Source of the DNA: an uncultured Verrucomicrobiota bacterium
Lineage (GTDB): Bacteria > Verrucomicrobiota > Verrucomicrobiia > Limisphaerales > Palsa-1400
DNA: 64,000 nt
NCBI GenBank assembly: GCA_964558455.1
Contig: CAZLEE010000001.1
Location: 4,228-68,227, forward strand
Direction of reading: 5' to 3'
Shown here piece after piece: positions 25,330 to 57,615 of this stretch. Numbering within the stretch: position 1 is the stretch's first letter; the number at the start of each line of letters is the position of its first letter. The notes beneath the pieces were generated by a model that had not been told where the DNA came from, made no database searches, and saw only the letters and a program-made list of their open reading frames with translations. The translations under genes were made by a program, and so were the position numbers.

Positions 25330-25345
25330 TGGCACGGCCTCTGCT
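25330..25345 (+). promoter_or_regulatory. Sigma54 promoter of the flgB-led flagellar operon
   Basis: TGGCAC-ggcct-CTGCT, with the -12 GC 24 nt before the flgB ATG. Confidence 0.65.
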
Positions 25346-25367
25346 AAAAGTTGGAAGAATTTTGGGT

Positions 25368-25748
25368 ATGATTGATGCGATTTTCAGTGATCCGTATTAC
25401 ATGGCGGCCAAAAAGATGCTGGACGTTTCCGCCCTGCGTCAGGAGGCCATTGCCAGCAATATCGCGAACGTGGAAACGCCCAATTATAAGCGATTGGATG
25501 TTTCCAAGTCCTTTGAAACCGAGTTGAGCCAAGCGGTGGCGGGCAAGGATATGGCGCAACTGAGCGCGTTGCAGCCGCAATTGTCGGTTGATACCCAGGC
25601 GGTTTCGGGGCGCGCCGATGGCAACACGGTTCAATTGGAAACAGAGATGCTGAAAATGAACCAAAACGTGGTGGAACACTCGATGGAAACGTTGCTGGTC
25701 AGCAACGCGCTTTCCAAGATGAACATGGCGATAACCGGCAAAGATTAA
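25368..25748 (+). CDS. flgB: Flagellar basal-body rod protein FlgB
   Basis: MIDAIF...ALRQEAIASNIANVETPNYKR. Confidence 0.9.
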   Translation: MIDAIFSDPYYMAAKKMLDVSALRQEAIASNIANVETPNYKRLDVSKSFETELSQAVAGKDMAQLSALQPQLSVDTQAVSGRADGNTVQLETEMLKMNQNVVEHSMETLLVSNALSKMNMAITGKD

Positions 25749-25755
25749 TTAATTT

Positions 25756-26184
25756 ATGATCTCCTTACTTTCCGGAGTTGACAGCACGGCGTCCGCCTTG
25801 AACGCCGAGCAGACCCGCATGGACATAATTTCGGAAAACATTGCCAACGTCAACACCACCAAGGGACTGGACGGAAAGCCTTATCAACGCCAGCAGGTGG
25901 TTTTTGAATCCGTCTTGAAGGCGCAGCAGGATGCCAGCGCCGGCGCCGTGCCGCAGACCACGCAAATCGTTCGCATTGCCAAGGATACCAGTCCGCCTCG
26001 CATGGTCTATAACCCCACCCATCCCGAAGCCAATGCCCAGGGGATGGTGGCGATGCCCAATATAGATATTCACGAGGAGATGGTGGATATGATTGCCAGT
26101 TCGCGTTCTTACGAGGCCAATCTGGCCGTGATCAAGAATGCCCGTTCCATGGCCATGCAGGATTTATCCATAGGCAAGCATTGA
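25756..26184 (+). CDS. flgC: Flagellar basal-body rod protein FlgC
   Basis: SALNAEQTRMDIISENIANVNTT...MPNIDIHEEMVDMIASSRSYEANL. Confidence 0.95.
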   Translation: MISLLSGVDSTASALNAEQTRMDIISENIANVNTTKGLDGKPYQRQQVVFESVLKAQQDASAGAVPQTTQIVRIAKDTSPPRMVYNPTHPEANAQGMVAMPNIDIHEEMVDMIASSRSYEANLAVIKNARSMAMQDLSIGKH

Positions 26185-26202
26185 TAGAAATTTTATTTCC
26201 AC

Positions 26203-26604
26203 ATGGACGCACTCTCAGCATTGAAAATGATGGCGGGCGGCCCGTTGACCGACCCGTCAGCCACGCTGACGAAGTCCGCCACGGCGCTGTCCGGCTCCGC
26301 CGCGCCGTCCATCTCCCCGGCGGAGTTGCAGACGCTCAGTTCCGATGCGCCGCAATCGGTCACGGGCGCAAGCGCTTCGTCTGCCGGCAATTTTCAAAAT
26401 TTGCTGGACGATTTTGTCGGCGAGGTCAACGACAAGCAAATTGCGGCTCAAAATGCCCTGACCGGCATGATGAGCGGGCAAGGAGTCTCCCTGCACCAGG
26501 CCATGATCTCGATGGAGGAAGCCAACGTTTCCTTCCAGATGATGATCGAGGTGCGCAACAAAGTTTTGGATTCGTATCAGGAATTGATGCGCATGCAAAT
26601 ATGA
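26203..26604 (+). CDS. fliE: Flagellar hook-basal body complex protein FliE
   Basis: FQNLLDDFVGEVNDKQ...SLHQAMISMEEANVSFQMMIEVRNKVLDSYQELMRMQI. Confidence 0.9.
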   Translation: MDALSALKMMAGGPLTDPSATLTKSATALSGSAAPSISPAELQTLSSDAPQSVTGASASSAGNFQNLLDDFVGEVNDKQIAAQNALTGMMSGQGVSLHQAMISMEEANVSFQMMIEVRNKVLDSYQELMRMQI

Positions 26605-26665
26605 TCAACCACCACCCAACCATTCATTTCCCTTTTCCGGCGGTTGACGCCGGCGCTTTCATTTC

Positions 26666-28282
26666 ATGAAACACAACCTTTCGCAGACTTTGCGCCAGTT
26701 GGCGGGCATATGGCAGCAGCTCGGCTTCAATCAACGCGTCAGCGTCATCATGGCGACGATTATTGTGTTGGGCGGCCTGGGCGCGGTGGCCTTTTTTTCC
26801 AGCCGGGTTGATTACTCCCTTCTTTACGGCAAATTGGACGAAGGCGAGGCGGCCAAGGTGATTGCCGCGCTGGATGAAGCCAAGGTGCCTTACCAGATCG
26901 GACGCGGCGGCAACGCCATCATGGTGCCGGCGGACAAGGTCTATCAACTCCGCATGCAGATGGCCAGCAAAGGCATCCCTCGCGGCGAAGGCGTCGGGTT
27001 TGAAATTTTTGACAAGGCCAGTTTTGGTCTTTCCGATTTTGTTCAGCGCGCCAATTACGCCCGCGCCATCCAGGGGGAATTGGCCCGCACCATCAGCCAG
27101 CTTGACCAGGTCGAGTCCGCGCGCGTGATGATTGTCATGCCCGAAAACCGGCTCCTGACCGATAATCTCCGCAAACCCACCGCGTCGGTTTTTGTCCGGG
27201 TGAAGGGCAATGCGCAGTTGCCGCCGCCCGCAGTCAGCTCGATCCAGTTTTTGGTGGCCAACAGCGTGGAGGGACTCCAGGCCAACAATGTTTCCGTGGT
27301 GGACAACCAGGGCAACGTCCTTTCCGAGAATCAGGAAAACGATTCCATTGCCGGCATGTCCGGCAACCAGCTCGCGGCGCGCCGCAATTATGAGCAGTAC
27401 CTGACCAAGAAGGCTGAGGGCATGTTGGAAAAGGTGCTTGGCCCCGGCCAGGCGGTGGTGCGCGTTGCCGTCGATCTCAATTGGGATTCGATGACCCGGA
27501 CGGAGGAAAAGTTTGATCCGGACAGCCAGGTGGCGCGTTCCAGCACGATCAACGATGAGACTTCGGACACCGACACCGCGAACGCCGGCGGATCGCCGGG
27601 CCTTGCCGCCAACAGCCCGGAAGGAAACACCAATTCGTCCAGCCAGCCTGTCAACAATTCCCACACCCATAAGAAAGTCACGACCAGCACGTTCGAGATA
27701 GACAAAATTACCAGCAACATGCTTCAAACCGCCGGCGGAGTGAAACGCATCTCCAGCGCGGTTTTCATCGCGCAAAAAGTGGAAGGCGCCGGCGCGAACC
27801 GCAAACCGGTGAAGCGTTCCGCCGAGGAACTGGACAAGCTCAAAAGCATCGTGCGCAGCGCGCTCGGCATCCAGGAAGCCGATCCGGCGCGCAAAGATGA
27901 AATCACCCTGGAAGAGATGCCGTTCAGCGATCAGGGCGCGGCTGAAATCACCCAGCAGTTGGAACAGCAGGACAAACATCAATTCCTGATGGATCTCGTG
28001 CCCAAGGTCGTTTACATCGGGCTGGCCATCGGGGTGATCGTCATGTTCCTGCGCCTGCTCAAAAGCGCCAAGACGGATGACATCCCCATCGGCGTGCCTC
28101 TGGGTAACGGCCATGGCGGCGCCAACGGGAACGGCGGCGCCAATGGCAACGGCAACGGTTTCGGCAATGGCAGGGGCGGAGTGGTCACGGTCGAGGTGCT
28201 GAACCAATTGATCCGCGAAAATCCGGCGAACATGGGTCAAGCCGTCCGCACCTGGATGACCCGCGGCAAATCCAATAACTAA
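26666..28282 (+). CDS. fliF: Flagellar MS-ring protein FliF
   Basis: LYGKLDEGEAAKVIAALDEAKVPYQI, MQMASKGIP, ARAIQGELARTI. It has a C-terminal TM, a GN-rich linker (GNGHGGANGNGGANGNGNGFGNG) and a conserved tail. Confidence 0.95.
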   Translation: MKHNLSQTLRQLAGIWQQLGFNQRVSVIMATIIVLGGLGAVAFFSSRVDYSLLYGKLDEGEAAKVIAALDEAKVPYQIGRGGNAIMVPADKVYQLRMQMASKGIPRGEGVGFEIFDKASFGLSDFVQRANYARAIQGELARTISQLDQVESARVMIVMPENRLLTDNLRKPTASVFVRVKGNAQLPPPAVSSIQFLVANSVEGLQANNVSVVDNQGNVLSENQENDSIAGMSGNQLAARRNYEQYLTKKAEGMLEKVLGPGQAVVRVAVDLNWDSMTRTEEKFDPDSQVARSSTINDETSDTDTANAGGSPGLAANSPEGNTNSSSQPVNNSHTHKKVTTSTFEIDKITSNMLQTAGGVKRISSAVFIAQKVEGAGANRKPVKRSAEELDKLKSIVRSALGIQEADPARKDEITLEEMPFSDQGAAEITQQLEQQDKHQFLMDLVPKVVYIGLAIGVIVMFLRLLKSAKTDDIPIGVPLGNGHGGANGNGGANGNGNGFGNGRGGVVTVEVLNQLIRENPANMGQAVRTWMTRGKSNN

Positions 28283-28356
28283 AACCCTTTTATGAAACTG
28301 GATAGCGCGATGCTCCTGCTGGCCGGCCCGGGCTGTCTGCGGGCGCGGAGGATGTC

Positions 28357-28953
28357 ATGGCGATGAACCCCTGGTCTCAACAGATTCATTTGCAAGCGCC
28401 CTTGCGCGATGTTCGCCTGGCCGGTCCCGAGACGTCGGCGCAGGCCGCCGAATCCGAGCGGCAGCGGGTCTGGCAGGAGGGATACGACAAGGGACGGATC
28501 GATGGCGAGAAATTGGTGAGCGAGCAATTGCTGAAACAACGCGGGGAATTGCAGGAAGTGTTGCAAGGCGTGCTTAACTCGATGCGCGGCGCCGTCCCGC
28601 AAGTGGTGCGCGACACCGAAGACACGGTCATTTCCCTCGCCATGGAAGTGGCCCGGAAACTCGTTTCCGACATGCCCATTTCCGCCCCCATGGTCGAAGC
28701 CGCCGTGCGCGACGCGCTGGGCCACGTGGAAGGTTCGACCCAGATCACGGTGCGTTTGCATCCGGCCGACTTGGAACTGGTGCAAAGCGCCGGTTCGGCT
28801 TTGCTGACCTCACCCAACGCCAAGCGTGATTTCCGTTTCCTCAGTTCGACCGAAGTCAGCCGCGGCGGCTGCCTGGTTGAGACCCGTTTTGGCACGGTGG
28901 ACAGCCGGCGCGAAACAAAATTTGATCTCTTGAAAAAATCCCTCCTCGCATGA
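28357..28953 (+). CDS. fliH: Flagellar assembly protein FliH
   Basis: EGYDKGRIDGEK..., RLHPADLELV, SRGGCLVETRFGTVDSR. GGAGG lies 6 nt before the ATG, and the gene overlaps fliI by 4 nt. Confidence 0.8.
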   Translation: MAMNPWSQQIHLQAPLRDVRLAGPETSAQAAESERQRVWQEGYDKGRIDGEKLVSEQLLKQRGELQEVLQGVLNSMRGAVPQVVRDTEDTVISLAMEVARKLVSDMPISAPMVEAAVRDALGHVEGSTQITVRLHPADLELVQSAGSALLTSPNAKRDFRFLSSTEVSRGGCLVETRFGTVDSRRETKFDLLKKSLLA

Positions 28954-30335
28954 GCGCATCCTGCCTGACCGATTCTGTCAACCGCATTGAAGGCCTTCTC
29001 CGCCGCGCCCAGACCACGCGGGTGGTGCGCAGTCACGGCCGGGTCGTCCAGCTTATCGGTTTGGTCATTGAGTCCGAAGGCCCCCTCGCCTCTGTCGGGG
29101 AGATTTGCCGGATCGAATCCGCCCGCCACGACGGTTACACGCTGGCCGAGGTTGTAGGTTTCAAGGATCACCACGTATTACTCATGCCGCTGGGCGAGGT
29201 GAATGGCATTCATCCGGGCAGCGAAGTCATTGCCTTGGGCACCACCCTGCAAGTGCCGGTGGGCGAGACGCTGAAAGGCCGCGTCATCGACGGTTTGGGC
29301 GAACCTTTGGATGACAAAGGCCCGATTGAAGAGGATGCGTCGGTCAACTTGAATCAGCCCCCGCCGCACCCGCTGAAACGGCAACGCATCGGTCAGCCTT
29401 TTCGCACCGGAATCAAGGCGATTGACGCTTTCACCCCGTGCGGACGGGGCCAGCGTCTTGGTATTTTTGCGGGCAGCGGCGTGGGCAAATCGACCCTCCT
29501 GGGCATGATCGCCAGCCAGGCCGAGGCGGACGTCAACGTCATCGCCTTGATCGGGGAACGCGGTCGCGAAGTGCGCGAGTTTTTGGAAAAGGATTTGGAC
29601 GAAGCGGGCCGCCGCAAATCGGTTGTGGTGGTGGCCACCTCCAACCAGCCGGCCATTGCGCGTTTGAAGGGGGCGTTCGTGGCCATGGCCATTGCCGAAC
29701 ATTTTCGTGACGCCGGCCAGAATGTTTTGTTGATGATGGATTCGGTGACCCGTTTTGCCATGGCGCAACGCGAAATCGGGCTGGCGGTGGGCGAACCGCC
29801 CGCCACGCGCGGTTACACGCCGTCCGTTTTTTCGCTCCTGCCCCGCTTGTTGGAGCGCGCCGGAGCGGGGGAGACAGGCTCAATCACGGGTTTGTTCACC
29901 GTCCTGGTCGAAGCCGACGACATGAACGATCCCATTGCCGATGCGGTTCGCTCCATTCTTGACGGTCACATTGTGTTGACTCGCGAGTTGGCCACGCAAA
30001 ACCATTATCCGGCCATTGATGTGCTGGAAAGCGTCAGCCGTTTGACCCGGGATTTGGCCACCGCCCAACAACAGCAATTGCTTTCCCGCGCCCGTCAGGC
30101 CATGGCCACGTATCGCAAGAATCAGGATTTGATCAACATTGGCGCCTATCCCGCCGGAACCAATCCGGTGATTGATCAGAGCATCCATCTGCACGAGCCG
30201 TTGAAAACATTTTTGAACCAGGCGGTGGAAGACGGATTCTCCATCCCGCAGACCTGGTCGCTGTTGGAGAAGACGCTGGCGACGCCCCTGCCTTCTCCCA
30301 AGCCTGTGATGGCCGGCGGACGGAAAACAATTTAA
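28950..30335 (+). CDS. fliI: Flagellum-specific ATPase FliI
   Basis: Walker A GIFAGSGVGKSTLLGMI, Walker B VLLMMDSVTRFA, and TVLVEADDMNDPI. Confidence 0.95.
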   Translation: MSASCLTDSVNRIEGLLRRAQTTRVVRSHGRVVQLIGLVIESEGPLASVGEICRIESARHDGYTLAEVVGFKDHHVLLMPLGEVNGIHPGSEVIALGTTLQVPVGETLKGRVIDGLGEPLDDKGPIEEDASVNLNQPPPHPLKRQRIGQPFRTGIKAIDAFTPCGRGQRLGIFAGSGVGKSTLLGMIASQAEADVNVIALIGERGREVREFLEKDLDEAGRRKSVVVVATSNQPAIARLKGAFVAMAIAEHFRDAGQNVLLMMDSVTRFAMAQREIGLAVGEPPATRGYTPSVFSLLPRLLERAGAGETGSITGLFTVLVEADDMNDPIADAVRSILDGHIVLTRELATQNHYPAIDVLESVSRLTRDLATAQQQQLLSRARQAMATYRKNQDLINIGAYPAGTNPVIDQSIHLHEPLKTFLNQAVEDGFSIPQTWSLLEKTLATPLPSPKPVMAGGRKTI

Positions 30336-30341
30336 GCGCGC

Positions 30342-30812
30342 ATGAAACCTTTTCACTTCACCTTGGAATCCGTGGCCACCTTGCGCCGGCGGCAGGAGCA
30401 GAGGGCCATGGAAAAATATGCGCAAAGCCTGCTCGCCCGCCATCAGGCGGTGGAAAATCTCGAACGGGTCGGCCGGGATTTGAGCGCGTGCCGGGAGATG
30501 TTGCGCGGCCAGATGTCCGGCGGTTGCACGGCGGCGAAGGCCGTCCAAACCCGGGTTTATGAAAGTTCGCTGATGCAACGCCGCGACGAATGCGCGCGCG
30601 CGCTGGAAAACGCGGAACGCCGGGTGAACGCGGAGCTGCATGTCATGTTGCAGGCGCGCCAGCAACGGGAGATTGTGGATAAATTTTTTGACAAACAAAA
30701 GGCCGGTTACGAGCACGAGCAGGCGCGCGCCGAACAGAAGAACCTGGATGAGATGGCCGGGCGCAGGAGCAAATCCATCTTCGCCTGGAAACAAGCGGAA
30801 AATTCCCTATGA
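30342..30812 (+). CDS. fliJ: Flagellar export chaperone/stalk protein FliJ
   Basis: 156-aa coiled-coil protein (MKPFHFTLESVATLRRRQEQRAMEKYAQSL...) directly after fliI. Confidence 0.7.
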   Translation: MKPFHFTLESVATLRRRQEQRAMEKYAQSLLARHQAVENLERVGRDLSACREMLRGQMSGGCTAAKAVQTRVYESSLMQRRDECARALENAERRVNAELHVMLQARQQREIVDKFFDKQKAGYEHEQARAEQKNLDEMAGRRSKSIFAWKQAENSL

Positions 30813-31405
30813 TCAAACTGCTTACCACCCCTTGGATGACATCGCTGGTCAGCGTCCTCATTTACCTGGGCGCCATGGTGATGTTCTGGAAAACCCCGCC
30901 GCTGCCCAAGCCCGCGCCCGAGGTTGTTTCGACCGGAAAACGCCTGGGGCCTTCATGGGATTTTATCAACCCGGAAGCGGATCAACTCATGGCCGAACTG
31001 AAGACGGAAAAAGCCGCGCTCTCCAAAAAAGAGCAGGACCTCAGCGACCTCGCCGTCCGGTTGCAGGCGGAGCAGGCGGAAATGAATCTGGTCACGCAGT
31101 CCGTCCGGCAATTGCAGGTGGATTTTGATCAAAATGTGTTGCGCATCGGAGTGGAGGAAACGGCCAATTTGAAAAAATTGGCCAAGGTTTATGCGAACAT
31201 GGACCCGGCCAGCGCGGCCAAGATTATCCAGGAAATGGATGATGTGGGGATAATCAAAATAATGGTTTTTATGAAGGACACGGAAACAGCCGTCGTTTTG
31301 GAAGCCATGGCCAAGATGGGCCAGACTCAAGCCAAACGCGCCGCTGCTCTCTCCGACCGGCTTCGCCTGGCTTCATTCCGCAACTCCACCCCCTCTCCCA
31401 AATGA
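30809..31405 (+). CDS. Membrane-anchored MgtE_N/FlbB(MotE)-like flagellar protein
   Basis: N-terminal TM, a coiled coil, then LAKVYANMDPASAAKIIQEMDDVGIIKIMVFMKDTETAVVLEAM (an MgtE-N/FliG-like helical repeat). Confidence 0.5.
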   Translation: MIKLLTTPWMTSLVSVLIYLGAMVMFWKTPPLPKPAPEVVSTGKRLGPSWDFINPEADQLMAELKTEKAALSKKEQDLSDLAVRLQAEQAEMNLVTQSVRQLQVDFDQNVLRIGVEETANLKKLAKVYANMDPASAAKIIQEMDDVGIIKIMVFMKDTETAVVLEAMAKMGQTQAKRAAALSDRLRLASFRNSTPSPK

Positions 31406-34400
31406 TGGATCATTCCTCTGTGGGCGGCGCGACGACCTCGCCGGCCTTGGCGGGAGGTGTCTTCGCCTTGATTGCGGTAACGCCCGCAGCGGCGGCTGCG
31501 GCCTTGGAGGATTTTTTGAGCGTGATGTCGCATGCGACTCGCGATGATTTGGCAAAATCAACCGGTGGCGCAACAGTTTCCCCGGATGTGTCATCGTCCG
31601 GCCAGGATGCGTCGCCATCCATTGTGGCGCAGCCAATCGCGGGAGGCGTGACGGGCCGGGCGGCATTTTATCGGCAGAATATTTTCAATCCGCCATCTTC
31701 CGCCGCCGCCACTTCCAAAAACGCAACCGTTGCGGGCGCGCCTGCGGCTTTGCGGACAACATCCGCATCTCCAAAAAAACTGGCGCAATCGAAGGTTGCC
31801 ACCGTGTCCGCTGTTCAACAGGGCAACTTGGCGAACAAATCCATTTCTATTGCGCCTGCCGTTCAACAGAGTGAGTTGACGGGTAAATCCACCGCACTTG
31901 CCGCTGTGGAGCAGGGGCAGAGCGGGTTGGTGAATGAATCCATTGCGTCCGTCGTTCAACCATGCGAGTCAGCGGGCGAATCCGTTTCCATCACGCCCGC
32001 CGTCCAACAGGGCAAGTCAGCGAGTAAATCCACCACGCCCGCTGTTCAACAAGGACAGGGTGAATTGACGGGCAAACCCGTTGCGCCCGCGATTCAACAG
32101 AACGAGTTGGTGAATGAATCCATCGTGTCTGTCGTTCAACAAGACGGGTTGGCGGGCAAACCCATTTCCATTACGACAACCGCCCAACAAGGCGGATCAG
32201 CGGATAAACCTGTTGCGTCCGCTGCTCAACAGGGACAAGGCGAATTGGCAGATAGACCTGCCGCACCTGTGGTTCAGCAAGACGGGTTGGCGGGTAAATC
32301 CATTGCTATTACGACCATCGTCCAACAGGGTGGGTCAGCAAATGAACCCGCTACGTTTGTTGTTCAGCAGGACGGGCCGGTCAGTAAATCCATTTCCACT
32401 GCGACCGTCATCCAGCAGGGCGAGTCGGCGGGCAAACCTGCCGTGACCGTCGTGCAACAGGAACCGGTCGGGTTGGCCGGCAAACCGGCTGCGCCCGCCG
32501 AGCAAGACGAACTGGTGAACGAATCCACCGCGTCTGTTGCTCAACAAGGCGAGTCGGTGAGCAAATCCATTTTTATTACGACCACCGTCCAACAGGACGG
32601 ATCAGCAAACAAACCCGCCGCGCCTGCCGTTCAGCAAGACGAGTTGGCGAGTAAATCCATTTCCACTGCGACCGTCGTCCAACAGAGCGAGTCAGCAAGC
32701 AAACCTGCCGTGACCGTCGTGCAACAGGAACCGGTCGGGTTGGCCGGCAAACCGGCTGCGCCCGCCGAGCAAGACGAATTGGTGAATGAATCCACCGCGT
32801 CTGTTGCTCAACAAGACGAGTTGGTGAGCAAACCCATATCCATTACGACAACCGTCCAACAGGACGGATCGGCAGATCAACCTGTTGTATCCGCTGCTCA
32901 GCAGGGGCAAGGCGAATTGGCAGATAAACCTGCCGCGCCTGCCGTTCAGCAAGACGGGGCGGTCAGTAAATCCATTTCCACTGCGACCATCGTCCAGCGG
33001 GACGAGTCAGCGGGCAAACCTGCCGTGGCCGTCGTGCAACAGGAACCGGTCGGGTTGGCCGGCAAACCGGTTGCGCCCGCCGAGCAAGACAAATTGGTGG
33101 ACGAATCCACCGCGTCTGTTGCTCAACAAGGCGAGTTGGTGAGCAAACCCATTTCCATTACGACAACCGTTCAACAGGGCGCGTTGGCGAACGAACCTGC
33201 CGCATCCGCTATTCGGCAGGGACAGAATGAATCGACAGACAAACCTGTTGCGCCTGATGTTCAGCAAGACGAGGTTGCGAGCGAATCCATTTCCATCACG
33301 CCCCCCGTCCGGCAGGACGAGTCAGCGAGCAAACCTGCCGTGACCGTCGTGCAACAGGAACAGGTCGGGTTGGCCGGCAAACCCAGTGCGCCCGCCGTTC
33401 AGCAAGACGAGTCGGCGGATTCTCCGTCCGCGCCGGTGGTGGCCGAAATTGCCGACAATGCTCCGCTTCCGGCGCAAACACCAACGCCGTCACTTAATTT
33501 GCCGGGCGATGCGGCGGGGTCCGATGTTCTTGCGGCGGCGGTTTCCGCGCCTGTCCCCGCTCAACCGTCGTTGGTTTCCAATGCGGCCATGACCAAAACA
33601 ACCGTATCCGGGCGCGAAGTCCAGGCGAGCCGATCCCAATCCACGCGGAGCGATGCGGATGTCGCGGGCAAGATGGCCAATCCGCCGCGCGTCACGGACG
33701 ATTCGGAAGTTAAACCTGCCGCCAAAGTGGCGCCGGCTGCATCCCTGCCTGCACAGGGGAAGGCAAAGGAAACCAGCGCAGTGGCAGGAGGAACGGATCA
33801 CGCGAACGGTCAGGCGGCATCGCCGGAGGTAACAACGACATCTTTGCCGCAGGCGCCAGCGGCGGATCTTTCCATCACACCGGCGATGGCCGGCGTTGAG
33901 ATTGATGGCACGGTGAGTGCTTTAAATGGCCAACAGATGAAATCGACGCCAGAAAAGGACGAAATTGCCGGGCTTGCCGCGCAAAAAATGCCGGGGGCAC
34001 CCTGGCTGGCTGGCGTTTCTGTCAAAGCGTCGGATAATTTGGCCGTCGATTCCGATTCTGGTCCGTCAACCTCCGGGAATGTGATATCGGCGTCGTCCGT
34101 TGTCATCAACATGGCGGCCAAAACGGCGGAGACCACTTTGGGGGCGGTTGCAACAGCCGTCCCGGCTTCTTCCGCCGATCACGCCGCGGCGCAGGTGGAG
34201 CGTCTGGGAAATTGGGTGACTCAACAAGTTGTCATGGTGCAACAGTCCGGGATCAATAACATTGCGGTTTCGCTCAAACCCAATGCGGAGACCGAGCTGA
34301 GTTTGCAATTGACAAGTCACAACGGGCGGATTGAGGCAACCCTGAGTTTGGAACGGGGGGCCATGCCCGGGCTGGAGAGTCACTGGAAAGATTTGCAGGA

Positions 34401-47603: not shown

Positions 47604-48353
47604 ATGAATGTCAGTCTCTACCAGGCAGCCGCCGCACTGAAGGCCAACAGTAGTTGGCTGGATGTGATTACGGAGAATATGGCTTCCAGTTCGGTGCCGG
47701 GATTCAGAAAGCAATCCCTTACCACCGAGGCCGTCCAAGCCGGATTGATGCCGACGGGCAGCACGAGCGGCTCCGCCCCCGAACGTTTCAGCCTCCCCAA
47801 AACCAGCACCTCGGTGTGTTTCAAGAACGGGGAACTGGATTACACCGGCGACGACAAGAATGCCGCAATCGACGGCTCCGGTTTTTTTCAGGTGCAACTG
47901 GCCAACGGGATGACGGCGGTGACGCGTGACGGGGAGTTCCGGGTTGGCTCGAAAGGGCAACTGGAGACAAAGGAAGGTTACGCGGTCGTGGGGAGCAGCG
48001 GCCCAATCCAACTTGACCCGCAGAATCCCGCGCCGCTGGCCATTTCGGCCTCGGGTGATGTGCGGCAGGGGGGGGCCATAAAAGGAAAATTAAGTCTGAC
48101 GGATTATGAAAATCCGGAATTGCTCACCCAGACCAACGGCGTCTATTTCCTGGCGACCAATCCGGCTCTTCAGACAAAACCGGCGGATGGCACGATCAAG
48201 AACGGTTTTGTGGAATCGTCCAATGCGACGGCTCTGAACGAAATGGCGAACATGATGACGGCCATGCGCACTTTCGAAGCCAACCAGCACGTCATTCAAA
48301 TTCAAGATGACCGCATGAGCAAGGTCATCAGCGAATTGGGGAACCCGACATAA
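47604..48353 (+). CDS. flgF: Flagellar basal-body rod protein FlgF
   Basis: MNVSLYQAAAAL...ITENMASSSVPGFRK, and the C-terminal GFVESSNATALNEMANMMTAMRTFEANQ. Confidence 0.85.
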   Translation: MNVSLYQAAAALKANSSWLDVITENMASSSVPGFRKQSLTTEAVQAGLMPTGSTSGSAPERFSLPKTSTSVCFKNGELDYTGDDKNAAIDGSGFFQVQLANGMTAVTRDGEFRVGSKGQLETKEGYAVVGSSGPIQLDPQNPAPLAISASGDVRQGGAIKGKLSLTDYENPELLTQTNGVYFLATNPALQTKPADGTIKNGFVESSNATALNEMANMMTAMRTFEANQHVIQIQDDRMSKVISELGNPT

Positions 48354-48356
48354 TCT

Positions 48357-49142: not shown

Positions 49143-50098
49143 GTTGGTATAAGAATCTTTTTATTCTGCCGCTGGCTATCCTGGCGCAACTGGCCGGTCC
49201 GCAAACGGCGTCTGCGGATGTCTGGAGACTGCTGCCCCAGGCGCAAGTGGACGGCACGGGCATTTTCCTGGATCAAGTGGTGGCCATGCCGGGAGCCGGC
49301 CGCGCCATTCCCCATCTCCGCATTGCCGGCGCGCCCCAACCCAGCCAGCCCAGCTCGTTTTCCCGCAGTCAAATCGCCTTGCTGGCGCGTCTCGCCGGAG
49401 CGGCGCCGCTGGCGACGAATTGGGAGGGAGCAACGACAATTCATGTTTCGCGGCAGTTGCGCGCTTTTGAGGATCCCGAATTGACCCAGCTTTTGACCGC
49501 CACCCTGCAAAAAGAATACGTCAAGAATCAAGGCGAGTTGGAACTGGGCCTGACCAAGCCCTGGGCGTCGGTGCAAGTGCCGGACGAACCGCTCACCTTG
49601 AAGATAAAACAGATGCCTGCGAATGGAATCAGCCCGGCTTTCATCATGACCTTCGAGCTTTGGGACGGCTGGGAACGGGTTGGCAGTTGGCAGGTCGTTG
49701 CGCACGCCGCCGTGTGGCGCGATATTCCGGTGGCCCATTCGGCCCTGACCCGGGGCGAGACGTTGAAAGGCGCGGACCTGACCATGGAGCGGGCGGACGT
49801 GCTGGTTGAGCGGGACGCTTTTCTAAACTTTCCCATAGTCAATGATTCGCTCGAATTGAGCGAAAATATCCAGGTGGGCCATCCGATCCTCAATCGCATG
49901 GTCCGGGTCCATCCGCTCGTCCTGCGGGGGCAATTGGTGGAAGGTGTTTTTCAGGACGGCAGCCTCGGCATATCCCTCATGGTGGAAACACTGGAGGACG
50001 GCATACTCGGCCAGGTGGTGCGAGTGAGAAACCCCTTAACCAAACGCGAACTTTATGGAAAAGTTGAAAGTGAAAAATCGGTGCGGATCAATCTGTAG
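49139..50098 (+). CDS. flgA: P-ring assembly chaperone FlgA
   Basis: Signal peptide, SAF-like VAHSALTRGETLKGADL, and the C-terminal GQVVRVRNPLTKRELYGKV. Confidence 0.75.
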   Translation: MSWYKNLFILPLAILAQLAGPQTASADVWRLLPQAQVDGTGIFLDQVVAMPGAGRAIPHLRIAGAPQPSQPSSFSRSQIALLARLAGAAPLATNWEGATTIHVSRQLRAFEDPELTQLLTATLQKEYVKNQGELELGLTKPWASVQVPDEPLTLKIKQMPANGISPAFIMTFELWDGWERVGSWQVVAHAAVWRDIPVAHSALTRGETLKGADLTMERADVLVERDAFLNFPIVNDSLELSENIQVGHPILNRMVRVHPLVLRGQLVEGVFQDGSLGISLMVETLEDGILGQVVRVRNPLTKRELYGKVESEKSVRINL

Positions 50099-50705
50099 GC
50101 CGGTCGTTCTGGCGGCGGCGCTGATTCTTGCGGCTGCCGGGAGCGGCCAGGCGGATTCGTTGTGGAATCCGGTCAATTGCCGCGCCATGACGTCGGATAA
50201 GAAGGCGCAGGCGATTGGCGATATTCTGACCATTTTAATCCAGGAAAACAACGGGGCGACCCGCCAAAACAACACGACCACTTCCAAGAAAACTTCGGTG
50301 AACGCGGCGCTGGCCAGCCTGCTCTACAGTCCGGCGAGTTCGGGTTTGTTGACCAAGAAGGGGGCGTTGCCGGCGGCAAGCTGGACTTCGGACGCGGAGT
50401 TTAACGGGGGCGGTTCGATCAACAACGCGGAAACCATCACGGCCCAGATGGCGGTGCGGGTGGTGGATATTTTGCCCAACGGAAACATGGTGGTGGAGGG
50501 ACAGTTGCGCACCGACTTCTCCGGGGAGAAGCAGGACGCCGTCGTGCGCGGAACAGTTCGCCCGGACGACGTGGCGGCCAATAATACGCTTTACAGCTAC
50601 AACATCGCCGATGCCACGATTCAATTCATCTCGAAGGGAACGCTGACCGATTCGCAGCGCAGGGGCTGGCTGACGAAATTCTGGGATAAGCTGACCCCAT
50701 TCTGA
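50055..50705 (+). CDS. flgH: Flagellar L-ring protein FlgH
   Basis: KAQAIGDILTILIQEN...ITAQMAVRVVDILPNGNMVVEG...VRGTVRPDD. It has a signal peptide but no lipobox Cys, and overlaps flgA by 44 nt. Confidence 0.85.
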   Translation: MEKLKVKNRCGSICRPVVLAAALILAAAGSGQADSLWNPVNCRAMTSDKKAQAIGDILTILIQENNGATRQNNTTTSKKTSVNAALASLLYSPASSGLLTKKGALPAASWTSDAEFNGGGSINNAETITAQMAVRVVDILPNGNMVVEGQLRTDFSGEKQDAVVRGTVRPDDVAANNTLYSYNIADATIQFISKGTLTDSQRRGWLTKFWDKLTPF

Positions 50706-50714
50706 TATCATTTC

Positions 50715-51815
50715 ATGCGACATTCTCTTCAACGACTGGTGTGGCTGGCGCTGGCGGGTTTCTCCTGCGTCGCCGGCGCCACAGGGGTGCGTGTCAAAGA
50801 TATTGCCGTCGTTTCAGGCGTGCGAGACAACCAGTTGGCGGGCTACGGCCTGGTGGCGGGTCTGGCGGGCGACGGCGACAAGAACCCGGCCCAAACATTG
50901 CAGACCATCCAGAACATTTTGCAACGTTTTGGCGTGACGATTCCCGCCTCGACCTTGTCGGCCAAAAACGTGGCCATCGTCATGGTCACGACCGATATTC
51001 CGGCCTTTAAGAAATCAGGCACGCGGCTGGATGTGACGGTCGCGTCGATGGGTGACGCCAAGAGCCTGCAAGGAGGCATTTTATTGCAAACGCCGCTGCT
51101 GGGCGCGGATGGAAAAGTGTATGCGGTGGCCCAAGGCGCGTTGACTCTCGGCGGCATATCGGCGGGAGGCGAGGGCGCATCCGTGCAAAAAAACCATCCG
51201 ACCGTGGGGCAGATCGCCGATGGGGCGGTGGTGGAACGGGAAATTCCTGCGCAAATAATCAGCGATCATCATTTGGATTTGATATTGCGGGAGTCGGATT
51301 TCACCACGGCGGCGCGCCTGGCGATGGCGTTGAACGTCAAGTTCACCAACAGCTCGCTTGCGATTGATTCCTCCACCGTGCAGGTTCGCGTGCCGGACGA
51401 GTTTGAATCAACGCCGATCAATTTCGTTTCATTGCTGGAGGCGGTGGAAGTGAACACGGACATCCCGGCGCGCATCGTGATCAACGAACGCACCGGAACG
51501 ATTGTCGCGACCTCCCGCATCTGCATTTCGGCCTGCGCCGTGTCTCATGGCAACGTGACCATCAGCATTGCCACCACCATGAATGTTTCACAACCAGGCC
51601 CGATGTCCCAGGGCGGAAAGACCGTGGTGACGCCGAAGACGGACGCGAAAGTTTCGGAAGAAAAAGGTTCCATGGTGACGCTGCCTGAATTGCCCACGGT
51701 GGAAAAAGTGGCCTCGGCCTTGAACGCCTTGGGCGTCACGCCGAGGGACATGATGTCCATCTTCCAGGCGATGAAAGAAGCGGGGGCGTTGCAGGCGGAA
51801 TTAATCATCCGGTGA
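50715..51815 (+). CDS. flgI: Flagellar P-ring protein FlgI
   Basis: RVKDIAVVSGVRDNQLAGYGLVAGLAGDGDK, SLQGGILLQTPLLGADGKVYAVAQG. Confidence 0.95.
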   Translation: MRHSLQRLVWLALAGFSCVAGATGVRVKDIAVVSGVRDNQLAGYGLVAGLAGDGDKNPAQTLQTIQNILQRFGVTIPASTLSAKNVAIVMVTTDIPAFKKSGTRLDVTVASMGDAKSLQGGILLQTPLLGADGKVYAVAQGALTLGGISAGGEGASVQKNHPTVGQIADGAVVEREIPAQIISDHHLDLILRESDFTTAARLAMALNVKFTNSSLAIDSSTVQVRVPDEFESTPINFVSLLEAVEVNTDIPARIVINERTGTIVATSRICISACAVSHGNVTISIATTMNVSQPGPMSQGGKTVVTPKTDAKVSEEKGSMVTLPELPTVEKVASALNALGVTPRDMMSIFQAMKEAGALQAELIIR

Positions 51816-51818
51816 CGT

Positions 51819-52196
51819 ATGGACATAACCGCTCTTCAACCCCACCTGAAAGCCTCCTCGGTGCCGCTGGATCAACTGGCGGGAAACCCCAACGTCACGC
51901 AGAGCGACAAGGTCAAGGAAGCGTGCCGCCAGTTTGAGGCGGTTTTGTTGCGGCAGATTTTGAAAGACGCGCGCAAGCCGGTCGGTCCGGACGGGCAGGA
52001 GGATGAGTCGGCCGCCACTGGAATTTATAATGACATGATCAATAACCAGATGGCTGATTGCATCAGTCGTTCCGGGTCTTTCGGCCTGGCCAAAAGTCTG
52101 GAAAATCAATTGGTCAACCAAGTCCTGCCCAAGGCGTTGGGCCGGGCGCAACCGGAGTCCGGCGCAAAACCCGCCGTTTCCCCAGCCAATAAATAA
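51819..52196 (+). CDS. Rod-binding protein (FlgJ N-terminal-domain type, no muramidase domain)
   Basis: ACRQFEAVLLRQILKDARK...GIYNDMINNQMAD...GLAKSLENQL. Confidence 0.65.
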   Translation: MDITALQPHLKASSVPLDQLAGNPNVTQSDKVKEACRQFEAVLLRQILKDARKPVGPDGQEDESAATGIYNDMINNQMADCISRSGSFGLAKSLENQLVNQVLPKALGRAQPESGAKPAVSPANK

Positions 52197-52199
52197 TTC

Positions 52200-52697
52200 A
52201 TGACCGAAAACATTTCCATTTTAGTGGACGCCCTGCGGCAGGAACTGGAACAGTACGGCGAGATGCTCGCCCTGCTGGAGCGCCAACAACAACAAATCGT
52301 GGCGCGTTCGGCCGATGAGGTTTACCAATCCATTGCCCCCATCAAGTCGCAGGGGGTTGCGATCCAGCAGGCCCGCGTCCGGCGCGAGGAATGCCGCGCC
52401 AAACTGGCTCAGTCGATGAACTGTCCGGATAATGCGACTTTTGCCCAGTTGATCCCGCTGGTGGCGGAGGAGTGCCGTCCCTTGCTGCGCGCATTGGTGG
52501 AGGAGAACAACGAGTTGCTGGCCCGCGTGCGGCAGCGCGCCCGCCAAAACCATTTGCGTCTGAGCCGTTCGATTGAATTGATGCAAGGGTTGATCAACTC
52601 CCTTTTCCCGGCGCGCCAGCCGCGCGTTTACAACGGTCAGGGAAACATGAAGCTGCGCCGTCCCACCCCGCAGGCGATCTATAATGCCGTGGGCTGA
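52200..52697 (+). CDS. flgN: FlgN-like flagellar export chaperone (tentative)
   Basis: 165-aa helical protein before flgK-flgL, with LVDALRQELEQYGEMLALLERQQQQIV. Confidence 0.5.
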   Translation: MTENISILVDALRQELEQYGEMLALLERQQQQIVARSADEVYQSIAPIKSQGVAIQQARVRREECRAKLAQSMNCPDNATFAQLIPLVAEECRPLLRALVEENNELLARVRQRARQNHLRLSRSIELMQGLINSLFPARQPRVYNGQGNMKLRRPTPQAIYNAVG

Positions 52698-52709
52698 TTT
52701 GTTTGTTTT

Positions 52710-54119
52710 ATGTTGTCACTATTTGGCGTCTTGAACATGGCCGGGCAGTCGCTCTCGGTGGAGACCCAGGCGACGGCTGTGGCGGGGCAGAATCTGGCCA
52801 ATGTCAGTAATCCGGCCTATGCCGACGAGCAATTGCAGGTTCAGGCGGCGCCGTCGTTGGACACCACGTCCGGGGACGAGGGCACGGGGGTGCAGGCGAC
52901 CAAGATCACCCAGCTTTGGGATTCGCTCCTGAATTCGCAAATTGTCGCGGAGGACAGCGTCAGCGGGTCGCTCAATTCGCAGCAGAGCGCGTTGCAGCAG
53001 ACCGAGGCTTATTTGAACGAACAACTGAGCAGTTCCTCCAGCACCGGCACCTCCAGCTCGAACGGATTGGCGGCGGACTTGTCCGGTCTGTTCAATTCGT
53101 TGCAAACCCTTTCCACCGATCCCACCAGCATCCCGGACCGTCAAGCCGTGGCGCAAAGCGCGCAGCAGTTGACCCAGCAGTTCAACTCGGTTTCCTCCGG
53201 TCTGACCACCGTGGCCTCGGACTTGAACACTTCCATCCAAAACGGCGTCACTTCCAGCAACAACGACCTGAGTCAAATTGCCGCGTTAAACGAGCAGATC
53301 ATCAACGCCCAGGCCGACGGCGGCACGGACAATAATTTGATTGATCAACGGGAGAAGACAATTGAAGACCTGGCCGGTTACGCGAATATAACCACCTCCG
53401 CGCAGTCGAACGGGGCGGTCAATGTCAGCATCGGCGGCGTGACCATGGTGGCCGACGGCGCGACGCCGGATAGTTTGCAGACTTACACCAATTCCAGCGG
53501 CCAGTTGATGATTCAGGCCCAAAACGCCGGCACCCCGCTGACCCTGACGGGCGGCAGCATCGAGGGCAGCATCACCGCGCGCGATGGCCAGGTGGCAACC
53601 CTGCAAAATTCCATCAACACCCTGGCCTCAACCCTGATCACCCAGTTCAATTCGGTTTATTCCGGCGGTTACGATTTGAACAACAACAACAGCACACAGG
53701 ATTTCTTCACCGGTTCGGACGCGGCATCCATCGGGGTGAACAGCACCGTGGTGAATGATCCCACCACCTTTCAAGCCAGCGGCACATCGGGCGACACGGG
53801 TGACAACACGGTGGTGCTGTCCCTGGCGAACCTGGCCAGCCAGTCGCTCTCAAGTTTGAGCAACCAGACTTTGAGCCAGAGTTACGCGGCCACCATCGGG
53901 GATTTCGGCTCCGCCCTGCAATCGGTCAACAGTCAAATCTCCAACAGCACGGCGGTGTCGCAAATGCTTGCCACTCAGCGCAGTTCGGAAACCGGCGTGG
54001 ATACCGACACGGAAATGACCAATCTGATGCAGTACCAAAAGGCATATGAGGCATCAGCCGAGTTGGTTACGACGGTGAATCAAATGTTGGAAACTTTGAT
54101 CGACATGAAGACAGAATGA
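52710..54119 (+). CDS. flgK: Hook-associated protein 1 FlgK
   Basis: GVLNMAGQSLSVETQATAVAGQNLANVSNPAY, and the C-terminal VDTDTEMTNLMQYQKAYEASA. Confidence 0.9.
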   Translation: MLSLFGVLNMAGQSLSVETQATAVAGQNLANVSNPAYADEQLQVQAAPSLDTTSGDEGTGVQATKITQLWDSLLNSQIVAEDSVSGSLNSQQSALQQTEAYLNEQLSSSSSTGTSSSNGLAADLSGLFNSLQTLSTDPTSIPDRQAVAQSAQQLTQQFNSVSSGLTTVASDLNTSIQNGVTSSNNDLSQIAALNEQIINAQADGGTDNNLIDQREKTIEDLAGYANITTSAQSNGAVNVSIGGVTMVADGATPDSLQTYTNSSGQLMIQAQNAGTPLTLTGGSIEGSITARDGQVATLQNSINTLASTLITQFNSVYSGGYDLNNNNSTQDFFTGSDAASIGVNSTVVNDPTTFQASGTSGDTGDNTVVLSLANLASQSLSSLSNQTLSQSYAATIGDFGSALQSVNSQISNSTAVSQMLATQRSSETGVDTDTEMTNLMQYQKAYEASAELVTTVNQMLETLIDMKTE

Positions 54120-54145
54120 GTGTTTCCTTTTGACCCATCACACAT

Positions 54146-55087
54146 ATGCGCGTATCCAGTTCAACTTTTACGGGTGGTTTTATCGGCGAGATCCAACAAT
54201 TGGAGCAACAGCAGAACACCCTGCAAGAGCAGGCCAGTTCCGGGCTTTCGGTGACGTTGCCATCAGACAATCCCTCCGTCATGTCCGAAGTGTTGAATCT
54301 GCAAACCAACGGCGCGGCCAACACCCAGTACCAAAGCAACATCACCCAATTGCAGGCCTCGGCCACAACATCCGCCACGGCCATGAACAGTTTGCAGACG
54401 ATTGTCAGCCAGGTGAATGAAATCGCCACCAACGCGTCCAGCGGGACGGCTTCTTCCACCCAACTCTCAACTTATGCGTCCGAAGTGGAAGCCTGCATCC
54501 AACAGGCCATGCAACTGGGCAACACGCAGGACGCCAACGGGAATTATATTTTCGGCGGCACCGATTCCAGCACCAAGCCGTTCGTTGCCACCACCGATGC
54601 CAACGGCAACGTCACGGGCGTCTCTTACAAGGGCAACACCAATGTGAACCAGAATGACATCGGGTTGAGTATGACCGTTGCCACCCAGGTTCCGGGCGAG
54701 AATACCACCGGCTCAGGTGCGGAAGGTCTTTTTGCGGACAGCCGCACCGGCGCGGATTTGTTCAAAGACATGGTTTCCCTGCAACAGAATCTGGCCTCGG
54801 GCGACACCAGCGCCATCAGTTCCACCAACGCGCCGGCCCTGACTAATGACGAGAATAATATCATCAACCAGATCAGCGCCAATGGCGTGGTGCAATCCGC
54901 CTTGACCGCCGCAAATACCATGGCCACCTCCCAAAATACCAATATGACCACGGAAATAACGAATGATACCAGCGCCAACATGGCCCAGACCATGACGGAA
55001 CTGGATCAGACCCAGACCGCCTACCAAGCTGCGCTGGAAAGTGGCACGATGGTGATGAGCGTATCGTTGCTCAATTACTTGCAGTAA
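54146..55087 (+). CDS. flgL: Hook-associated protein 3 FlgL
   Basis: MRVSSSTF...QEQASSGLSVTLPSDNPS, with a flagellin-like N-terminus and C-terminus (ELDQTQTAYQAALESG). Confidence 0.85.
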   Translation: MRVSSSTFTGGFIGEIQQLEQQQNTLQEQASSGLSVTLPSDNPSVMSEVLNLQTNGAANTQYQSNITQLQASATTSATAMNSLQTIVSQVNEIATNASSGTASSTQLSTYASEVEACIQQAMQLGNTQDANGNYIFGGTDSSTKPFVATTDANGNVTGVSYKGNTNVNQNDIGLSMTVATQVPGENTTGSGAEGLFADSRTGADLFKDMVSLQQNLASGDTSAISSTNAPALTNDENNIINQISANGVVQSALTAANTMATSQNTNMTTEITNDTSANMAQTMTELDQTQTAYQAALESGTMVMSVSLLNYLQ

Positions 55088-56629: not shown

Positions 56630-56643
56630 GGTTGTTTTTGCCT
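56630..56643 (+). promoter_or_regulatory. Shared upstream element GGTTGTTTTTGCCT (copy 1, 95 bp before the fliW -24 element)
   Basis: This is an exact 14-mer also found at 57512-57525. Looser relatives occur near the other sigma54 promoters. Confidence 0.4.
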
Positions 56644-56737
56644 GGTGTAGTCCGGGATGCGGCAGTTTTCTGCCTCTTTGGTGGGAAATTACCGGCGGGG
56701 TCGGTATTTCGCCGGGTGATTGGCCGGGATTGGGGCG

Positions 56738-56753
56738 TGGCACAATCTTTGCT
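56738..56753 (+). promoter_or_regulatory. Sigma54 promoter of fliW-csrA
   Basis: TGGCAC-aatct-TTGCT is a perfect core match, 27 nt before the fliW ATG. Confidence 0.7.
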
Positions 56754-56779
56754 AAACAGGGTTGGACTAGATCGAAATT

Positions 56780-57208
56780 ATGAATACCGAAACACTCTTG
56801 GAACCGCCGACACAGACTTTGGATGACCGGGCGATCATTCATCTCCCCTTTGGCCTTCTGGGGTTCGAGCAGGTCAAAAGCTATATTTTGCTGGCCGCGC
56901 CGAATGAAAAGCCCTTCATGTGGATGCAAATGATGGACGCCCCGAGGAAATCCTTTCTCATCGTCTCGCCTTTCCTGGTCATGCCGGAGTACCAGCTCGA
57001 CATTCCGGAGCGCGATGTTGAATTTCTCGATTTGACCGAGCCGACTGACGCGCTGGTCTTCAACATCTGCACCCTGCGCGGGCCGGGCAATGCCACCATC
57101 AATTTAAAAGCCCCTCTGGTCATCAATCGTTACACGTTGATCTGCAAGCAGGTCATCCCTGACAACGCCTCGCAATACGCCTTGAACCACCCTTTGCTTG
57201 TCACCTAA
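56780..57208 (+). CDS. fliW: Flagellar assembly factor FliW
   Basis: IHLPFGLLGFEQVKSYILL...PFMWMQMMD...FLIVSPFLVMPEYQLDI...ATINLKAPLVIN. Confidence 0.85.
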   Translation: MNTETLLEPPTQTLDDRAIIHLPFGLLGFEQVKSYILLAAPNEKPFMWMQMMDAPRKSFLIVSPFLVMPEYQLDIPERDVEFLDLTEPTDALVFNICTLRGPGNATINLKAPLVINRYTLICKQVIPDNASQYALNHPLLVT

Positions 57209-57228
57209 GACCGGACGGTCTGATTCCC

Positions 57229-57477
57229 ATGCTTATCCTTTCCCGCAAACCTGGCGAAAGCATCATCATTGATGGCCGCATCACCGTTCGTGTCATGCGG
57301 CTGGAAGGGGATGTGGTCAAGCTGGGCATCGACGCCCCCAGGGATGTCCCGGTCCATCGCCAGGAGGTTTACGAGGAAATTCAACGCAGTAACAAAGAGG
57401 CCGTGACGGATTCCCACCCCCCGCTGCCCCAACTCATCGTCCAGCCGCCTCCCGCTTCACCGGCTGCCAAGAAATAA
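57229..57477 (+). CDS. csrA: Carbon storage regulator CsrA (flagellar type with C-terminal extension)
   Basis: MLILSRKPGESIIIDGRITVRVMRLEGDVVKLGIDAPRDVPVHRQEVYEEI, plus a Pro-rich tail. Confidence 0.9.
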   Translation: MLILSRKPGESIIIDGRITVRVMRLEGDVVKLGIDAPRDVPVHRQEVYEEIQRSNKEAVTDSHPPLPQLIVQPPPASPAAKK

Positions 57478-57511
57478 CCCGCGCCAGCGCGTCACTGATT
57501 CGCTGCAATCT

Positions 57512-57525
57512 GGTTGTTTTTGCCT
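57512..57525 (+). promoter_or_regulatory. Shared upstream element GGTTGTTTTTGCCT (copy 2, 75 bp before the -24 element of the glycosyltransferase gene)
   Basis: Exact 14-mer match to 56630-56643. Confidence 0.4.
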
Positions 57526-57599
57526 ACCTCGGTTCGTTTTTTGACCAGGGAAGGGCTGTTTCCGACGGTTTGCCCGGCAGGGAGGTTCCCTTCAACTGG

Positions 57600-57615
57600 T
57601 GGCATATTCTTTGCT
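57600..57615 (+). promoter_or_regulatory. Sigma54 promoter of the giant glycosyltransferase gene
   Basis: TGGCAT-attct-TTGCT-TAAC, versus TGGCAC-aatct-TTGCT-AAAC at fliW. It lies 29 nt before the ATG at 57644. Confidence 0.65.

Follow-up and report, generated by a model that had tools for sequence, protein, structure and literature searches.

Putative sigma-54 promoters in the flagellar gene region of an uncultured Verrucomicrobiota bacterium

The window analysed here is a stretch of 64,000 nucleotides (nt) from an uncultured Verrucomicrobiota bacterium of the Limisphaerales (assembly GCA_964558455.1, contig CAZLEE010000001.1, positions 4,228 to 68,227), and it carries a flagellar gene region. 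Seven sites in the window match the pattern TGGCA-N7-TGCT. Judged by their letters, their placement before genes and their conservation in relatives, they are very probably functional −24/−12 promoters for RNA polymerase carrying sigma-54 (RpoN), and would split the flagellar region into at least five transcription start points. These would lie upstream of flgB (25330), within fliK (33906), ahead of ORF81-fliA-motAB (44485), ahead of flgF-flgL (47575) and ahead of fliW-csrA (56738). From the second of them the FliK C-terminal module, flgD, flgE and the switch and export genes would be transcribed. Two further promoters would serve a giant glycosyltransferase gene and a prepilin-like gene. Coordinates are those of the window, and features lie on the + strand unless stated otherwise.

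Sigma-54-type motifs before flagellar operons

The initial annotation of this DNA had listed four near-identical sigma-54 promoters. All four match the strict pattern TGGCAYN5YTGCT. Three of them precede flgB (25330..25345, TGGCACGGCCTCTGCT; ATG 25368), flgF (47575..47590, TGGCACAGGCGTTGCT; ATG 47604) and fliW (56738..56753, TGGCACAATCTTTGCT; ATG 56780). The fourth (57600..57615, TGGCATATTCTTTGCT) precedes the giant glycosyltransferase gene (ATG 57644). Their coordinates and letters proved exact, Pfam agrees with the gene names, and at all four the GG and GC dinucleotides are exactly 10 nt apart, as annotated. The sites had been placed 13-29 nt before start codons; that placement holds, with measured gaps from motif end to start codon of 22 nt (flgB), 13 nt (flgF), 26 nt (fliW) and 28 nt (glycosyltransferase), a range of 13-28 nt. 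The number four is too low: there are seven pattern matches, at least six of them conserved or intergenic, and those at 10448, 33906 and 44485 were absent from the list.

Such matches are rare in random sequence. The strict pattern occurs five times in the window against 0.13 expected, and none of 100 shuffles reaches five; all five matches are intergenic and on the + strand. Relaxing two positions to TGGCA-N7-TGCT yields the seven matches against 0.63 expected, again all on the + strand and ahead of + strand gene starts.

Conservation was assessed in three sets of related loci, some of which are named below by L-numbers: 80 genome loci fetched around flgI (1.29 Mb in total) for the flgF and fliW side, 80 metagenome loci fetched around flgC for flgB, and eight relatives fetched via FlgD homologues for the site within fliK. 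FlgI relatives put the window in Verrucomicrobiota, the closest being metagenome-assembled genomes of Verrucomicrobiae and Limisphaerales, with 82% and 75% identity. A look-up of identical proteins gave no hit for the window's FlgI, and for its FlgD gave a protein encoded on JGI metagenome contigs. Genes of the window were named from Pfam and NCBIfam scans, and for each gene the best site within 100 nt upstream of its start was scored with no preselection on the pattern. In the genome loci the strict pattern occurs 59 times, 57 of them on the gene strand, and 55 of these 57 lie directly before flgF (three labelled flgG by blastx) or fliW. Of 65 genome loci scored gene by gene, 63 have a high-scoring site before flgF, at a distance of 11-17 nt from the start codon; the same scan of related loci returned no high-scoring site before the control starts of flgG, flgK, flgL, motA, motB, flgI and csrA. 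The flgF start itself is secure, as the N-terminus MNVSLYQ is conserved and an in-frame stop separates motif from start in 14 loci.

Conservation at the other two operons follows the same lines. A high-scoring motif precedes flgB in 58 of the 59 metagenome relatives with enough upstream DNA; from its first letter to the conserved MIDALF start it is 31-50 nt, in most cases 38 or 39. All nine relatives with a FliW of 46% identity or more have the fliW motif; three Chthoniobacter-like loci have a weaker form of it, and Opitutales-like loci, where flgL is directly followed by fliW, have none. Including relatives, more than 130 instances combine the textbook −24/−12 consensus, with invariant GG and GC spacing, with a free N5. 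Position and spacing are thus kept before orthologous genes in dozens of Verrucomicrobiota, and the annotated reading of these sites as genuine sigma-54 promoters is borne out to that extent.

Motifs within fliK and ahead of fliA

The motif at 33906..33921 (TGGCACGGTGAGTGCT) matches TGGCA-N7-TGCT and lies inside a fliK-like open reading frame (ORF; 31402-34626); from the motif it is 15 nt to an in-frame ATG (33937) and 712 nt to flgD. All eight relatives have TGGCAC-N5-NTGCT at the equivalent point of fliK, 730-750 nt before flgD and always 15 nt ahead of a conserved in-frame methionine. The codon that supplies the first T of the motif encodes D, G or S, and its third base is always T. The following Gly codon is GGC and the Ala codon GCT in nine of nine sequences, while the codon from which the T of TGC comes has T in third position throughout and stands for S, G, V or A. 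Third positions next to the motif codons vary freely. Because the third bases that the motif requires are invariant where the encoded residues change, selection appears to act on the DNA motif within fliK.

The architecture of the FliK-like protein is divided at this same methionine. The protein is unusually long in the window (1074 residues), and its relatives range from about 430 to 1130 open codons. Nearly all of this variation falls in the part before the conserved methionine, which spans 210 to 898 open codons across relatives; the C-terminal module that begins at Met 846 has 229 residues in the window and 221-238 in all relatives. Public gene calls begin exactly at the conserved methionine in two related loci (L164 and L171). 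Behind the internal site (33937..44518, named by Pfam) follow the FliK C-terminal module, flgD, flgE, fliL, fliM, fliN, fliO, fliP, fliQ, fliR, flhB, flhA and flhF.

A more far-reaching proposal can be made, for which we claim no better than a modest chance of being correct. The fliK-nested promoter may be kept across Verrucomicrobiota by selection on the DNA, both restarting transcription of the hook, switch and export genes and making a separate FliK C-terminal protein of 221-238 residues that lacks the N-terminal 'ruler' of variable length. The whole flagellar regulon, fliA included, would then depend on a single promoter type, one type of enhancer and near-leaderless messages. If this were true, two forms of the hook-length control protein would exist under different promoters, with the short form translated from a nearly leaderless mRNA that begins about 5 nt before the conserved methionine. 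The fliK-nested promoter is the lead most worth following.

The motif at 44485..44500 (TGGCAACGGATTTGCT) occupies the last codons of the FlhF-like gene (43412-44518), 24 nt before ORF81 (44525-44770). ORF81 is followed by fliA (sigma-28), motA and motB, the four genes together spanning 44525..47204 (Pfam/NCBIfam). All 13 relatives that have ORF81 also have TGGCA[AG]N5YTGCT there. Among 14 sequences (these relatives and the window) the motif lies outside any long ORF in nine, and in the other five it is read in three different frames, so the FlhF protein sequence does not account for it. ORF81 stands at the usual position of flhG; Pfam and NCBIfam reveal no MinD/ParA-type gene (flhG) after flhF. 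It encodes a predicted membrane protein of 81 residues (MKSLLLMGGLLGF...) with a KWWG motif and no Pfam or NCBIfam family, and is kept in at least 13 relatives.

The initial annotation had embedded fliA in one 30-kb transcription unit starting at flgB. This does not hold up well: since motifs conserved in 13 of 13 and eight of eight relatives lie at 44485 and 33906, respectively, fliA is not simply buried in such a unit, and the stretch from flgB to motB would have at least three sigma-54 start points. In Vibrio, fliA is itself sigma-54 dependent. Control of fliA by sigma-54 would here point to a similar cascade from sigma-54 to sigma-28, reached in a distant lineage. For the late genes, a search of the window for sigma-28 promoters (TAAA-N13-17-GCCGATA) gave no match.

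Candidate enhancers, a putative activator and rival explanations

We infer that the motifs are used by sigma-54 in this genome in the customary way. RNA polymerase carrying sigma-54 would bind them as a closed complex, which an enhancer-binding protein of the NtrC family (receiver domain, AAA+ domain with GAFTGA, HTH_8) would open. This activator would be encoded outside the window and would bind conserved boxes containing TTGCC, TTGCCTA among them, 65-110 nt upstream of the motifs. Placing the C of GC at −12 puts the predicted transcription start some 11 nt beyond the end of the motif. As the motifs end only 13-28 nt before start codons, the predicted leaders are just 3-18 nt or so: about 12 nt for flgB, 5 nt for the FliK C-terminal methionine, 14 nt for ORF81, 3 nt for flgF (1-7 nt across relatives), 16 nt for fliW and 18 nt for the glycosyltransferase. 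Shine-Dalgarno motifs are rare before gene starts in the window, where the sequence ahead of the ATG is typically A/T-rich. Initiation without a Shine-Dalgarno sequence therefore appears normal here, and short leaders should pose no problem. A sigma-70 consensus scan of 43-58 kb returned fewer sites than chance.

The candidate enhancer boxes would lie at about −90 to −135 from the predicted transcription starts, which is the usual place of sigma-54 enhancers. Upstream of flgB there are two, GGTCATTCCTGCC (25232-25244, about 98 nt before the motif) and GGCAATAATTTCC (25264-25276, about 66 nt before it), the latter being GGCA-N5-TGCC with one mismatch. In relatives the boxes are GGTCATTCTTGCCTAGC, about 95 nt before the motif start, and GGCAATAATTTCC, about 62 nt before it; sequence and distance are constant in about 40 relatives, the spacer between the boxes varies, and 8-mers of the boxes show a 20- to 35-fold enrichment. 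The flgB upstream alignment also contains T-tracts and a CAAACCCTTGATT-like stretch. RNAalifold on 40 of these sequences predicted no consensus pair that would indicate an RNA structure or terminator hairpin, and for this reason we read the boxes as DNA sites. They do not suit a sigma-70 promoter either, since the spacing from TTGCCT as −35 to the A/T-rich box as −10 is 22-24 nt and too long.

Similar boxes precede the middle and late-type operons. Upstream of flgF lie GGCATTTTTCTGCC (47486-47499), an instance of the palindrome GGCA-N5/6-TGCC, and GGAAGGTTTTGCC (47509-47521); this palindrome and TTGCCTAG are the boxes found upstream of flgB and flgF. Tandem copies of GGCA-N5/6-TGCC occur upstream of flgF, and 28 of 64 such regions have a perfect one, compared with 0.9% of control windows; allowing up to one mismatch, the palindrome occurs in 56 of 64 regions, compared with 14% of control windows, with peaks from −61 to −70 and −81 to −100 relative to the motif. 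The candidate enhancer of fliW (56630..56674) consists of the 14-mer GGTTGTTTTTGCCT (56630-56643) and the perfect palindrome GGCAGTTTTCTGCC (56661-56674), and by eye TTTGCC(T/C) boxes lie at a similar distance in most of the nine fliW relatives for which 200 nt of upstream DNA were available. An identical copy of GGTTGTTTTTGCCT (57512..57525) lies 88 nt before the glycosyltransferase motif; no such shared 14-mer is expected (0 by chance). A duplicated promoter region was considered for fliW and the glycosyltransferase and rejected, since beyond the 14-mer and the core motif the two regions are unlike. By their conservation and position, the upstream boxes are candidate binding sites of the activator.

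A candidate for the activator is found in relatives. An NtrC-type protein (REC, Sigma54_activat with GAFTGA, HTH_8) is encoded directly upstream of flgB in seven loci (L136, L140, L151, L144, L111, L130 and L170) and near fliW-csrA in two more (L076 and L077), making at least nine related loci. Its score lies below every NCBIfam equivalog cut-off (399 bits vs 750 for FlbD) and is alike against the FlbD, AtoC, NtrC and ZraR models, so these proteins are generic family members that cannot be assigned as FlbD, FlgR or NtrC orthologues. In two other loci (L164 and L168), the place upstream of flgB is taken instead by genes for a hybrid kinase and for a single receiver protein. In the window, neither a sensor kinase nor an NtrC-type regulator stands beside the flagellar genes. 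Two adjacent hybrid kinase-receiver genes (HisKA, HATPase_c, Response_reg; 2543-5553, − strand) are located 20 kb upstream of flgB. A TPR-repeat protein is repeatedly encoded beside the activator gene, at flgB and fliW-csrA alike (L136 725-4161; L076 16001-19340; also L144, L111 and L151), which suggests that it is a conserved partner of the activator. In L136 a small unassigned ORF sits between the two genes.

Three other explanations were weighed against sigma-54 promoters. That the matches arose by chance in a GC-rich genome has next to no probability. The short core TGGC-N8-TGC is indeed only mildly enriched in the window (29 found vs 19 expected), but the excess of the full pattern, its restriction to one strand before genes and its conservation at orthologous positions in many genomes already refute this idea. 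It is also highly improbable that TGGCA-N7-TGCT is the site of another regulator that binds DNA or RNA, such as a translational operator within the leader of transcripts begun further upstream. The element does sit 11-17 nt from the flgF start, where translational operators are found, and csrA is encoded in the region. However, CsrA recognises GGA, which the element does not resemble; no known RNA family reaches the Rfam gathering threshold in the window; and the flgB upstream region has no consensus RNA structure. Against such a regulator also stand the textbook consensus, its GG/GC spacing unvarying over the more than 130 instances, and the GAFTGA-type activators beside the operons in relatives, which act only on sigma-54.

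A single long operon from flgB to motB, transcribed from the flgB promoter only and with the matches at 33906 and 44485 as coding coincidences, is less far-fetched though still unlikely. Its genes are tightly packed on one strand, terminator-like sites in the window show no excess over chance, and the peptide around the fliK motif (G-T-x-x-A-L) is partly conserved. The fliK frame, moreover, is open across the motif in all relatives. Coding coincidence would nevertheless leave unexplained why the third bases of the fliK motif are fixed where the amino acid changes, why the 44485 motif recurs in all 13 relatives, mostly between genes and otherwise in three frames, and why gene callers independently began genes at the methionine 15 nt past the fliK motif in L164 and L171.

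Sigma-54 promoters thus remain the preferred reading, and several observations weigh against it. With the fliK frame continuous, the conserved methionine could be a mere internal residue. The flgF start codon is GTG in 28 of 62 relatives, and a leader as short as the roughly 3 nt predicted there would be out of the ordinary among the sigma-54 promoters described so far. GGCA-N5/6-TGCC is not specific, as only two of seven perfect copies in the window are at promoters. The sites at 57600 and 10448 are known from this one genome. Finally, neither rpoN nor an enhancer-binding protein is encoded in the window: Pfam detected no sigma-54 or Sigma54_activat domain in the main ORFs, and six-frame searches for GAFTGA, the activator Walker-A motif and the RpoN box, as well as tblastn with a relative's activator, returned nothing. 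There is no FlgM family hit in the window either, and the initial annotation was correct on all three absences. Its expectation that the activator is encoded elsewhere fits the NtrC-type genes beside flgB or fliW-csrA in several relatives, and the Verrucomicrobia genomes covered by a 2011 survey all had RpoN (PMC3372290, Table 1).

Operon contents and comparison with known flagellar systems

The genes behind the flgB promoter (25368..33905; Pfam/NCBIfam) are flgB, flgC, fliE (26203-26604), fliF, fliH, fliI, fliJ, an FlbB-like gene and the 5' part of fliK, all tightly packed on the + strand. In the window fliF is followed by fliH with no fliG in between, and a tblastn search of the 64 kb with FliG from a relative gave no hit. 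The fliF-fliH junction (28282-28357) is 8 nt and is the same in the closest metagenome relatives (L082, L083 and L086); in 23 other relatives the gap is 1.03-1.55 kb, and in L100 it was confirmed to contain fliG. The gene after fliJ (30809-31405) is a weak match to the spirochaete collar protein FlbB and to MgtE_N (36.9 bits vs a cut-off of 110), and it keeps this position in relatives.

The flgF operon (47604..55087; Pfam) comprises flgF, flgG, flgA, flgH, flgI, flgJ (rod-binding domain only), flgN, flgK and flgL. The block is conserved in 80 loci, and because motB is not upstream of it in many of them, it appears to be an independent unit. Between motB and the flgF enhancer region, an ORF of 79 residues (47223-47462) with no Pfam or NCBIfam family ends in ...IQCSCGKVIDLTCAY, and a similar C-terminal coding sequence (CxCG..I.L.C.Y-stop) occurs at this place in many relatives, including Chthoniobacter-like and Opitutales-like ones. 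In the two closest genome relatives, a sigma-54-like match lies inside flgN (L001 11698, TGGCACAAACGTTGCA; L002 11673, TGGCGCAAACGTTGCA); the equivalent place in the window has no site scoring 12 or more.

fliW and csrA (56780..57477; Pfam) are followed by the glycosyltransferase gene (57644..64000; Pfam), which runs past the window end. It encodes a multi-domain protein of at least 2119 residues (GT2 x4, GT4/GT1 x2, TPR) that may be a flagellin or surface glycosylation enzyme. The arrangement of csrA and this gene was not found in the fetched relatives, where matches are at the domain level only. Divergent from fliW are HDOD-domain and CheD-like genes (55152-56560, − strand), a pairing that recurs beside fliW in several relatives. 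The remaining motif (10448..10463, TGGCATCATCTTTGCT) is intergenic and lies 78 nt before an ATG (10542) in a prepilin-like ORF (10509-11450); the encoded protein has an N_methyl / prepilin-type N-terminal domain.

In Vibrio, Pseudomonas, Campylobacter, Helicobacter and Caulobacter, flagellar genes are known to be controlled by sigma-54 with NtrC-type activators (PMC3930126, PMC7064773), and sigma-54 is widely tied to flagella and cell-surface polysaccharide genes (PMC3162934). As such control is already established in other bacteria, the system described here is of a known kind. No study of flagellar regulation in Verrucomicrobiota turned up in the literature searched, and the main text of the sigma-54 survey by Francke et al. 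does not mention Verrucomicrobia. The four-tier hierarchies of Vibrio cholerae (FlrA, FlrBC) and Pseudomonas aeruginosa (FleQ, FleSR) resemble this region in having sigma-54 promoters before early genes (MS ring, export) and before rod and hook genes (PMC3930126, PMC7064773), as well as NtrC-family activators, an FlhF and a fliA within the flagellar cluster. Unlike in those species, no FleQ- or FlrA-type master regulator was found here, ORF81 takes the place of flhG, and the window lacks a sigma-28 consensus. A further difference is that a similar upstream box lies at the early (flgB), middle (flgF) and late-type (fliW) promoters. The same kind of box at all three hints at one activator instead of two tiers.

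Campylobacter jejuni and Helicobacter pylori also use sigma-54 for rod and hook genes (flgB, flgF/G, flgD/E, fliK), together with an NtrC-type response regulator in the FlgS-FlgR system (PMC7064773, PMC3930126). Their export-apparatus genes are sigma-70 dependent, whereas flhA, flhB and fliPQR lie behind sigma-54 motifs here, and their FlgR has no DNA-binding domain, whereas the activator of the relatives keeps HTH_8. The polar-flagellate sigma-54 programme (PMC7064773) is matched in its rod and hook genes, with motifs before flgB, flgF and the FliK C-terminal module with flgD and flgE, but not in having flhG after flhF. In Caulobacter crescentus, the NtrC-type activator FlbD (REC-AAA+-HTH) acts at ftr elements that lie some 100 bp ahead of the sigma-54 flagellar promoters (PMC3930126), and the boxes described above would be bound in a comparable way. 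Unlike in Caulobacter, the partner of the activator may be a TPR protein and not FliX.

The motifs resemble the enterobacterial promoters glnAp2 and nifH in their TGGCAC-N5-TTGCW core with GG and GC in a 10-nt register. Those promoters also have upstream activator sites and an A/T-rich or IHF-like stretch between, to which the candidate boxes, the T-tracts and the CAAACCCTTGATT-like stretch may correspond. The motifs and boxes of this window differ from these in their predicted leaders of about 3-18 nt and in the two putative promoters inside coding sequence. Only the putative fliK-internal promoter and the very short predicted leaders go beyond the known scheme. What appears distinctive, as read from the sequence, is that the same promoter type and similar boxes would serve early, middle and late-type operons, and that fliA would have a sigma-54 promoter of its own. 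To our knowledge, flagellar gene control is known almost entirely from Proteobacteria, Campylobacterota, Firmicutes and spirochaetes. The present analysis adds a concrete promoter map for Verrucomicrobiota, with operon starts, a candidate enhancer sequence and a candidate activator gene in relatives. It describes not a new mechanism but a known style of flagellar control in a little-studied phylum.

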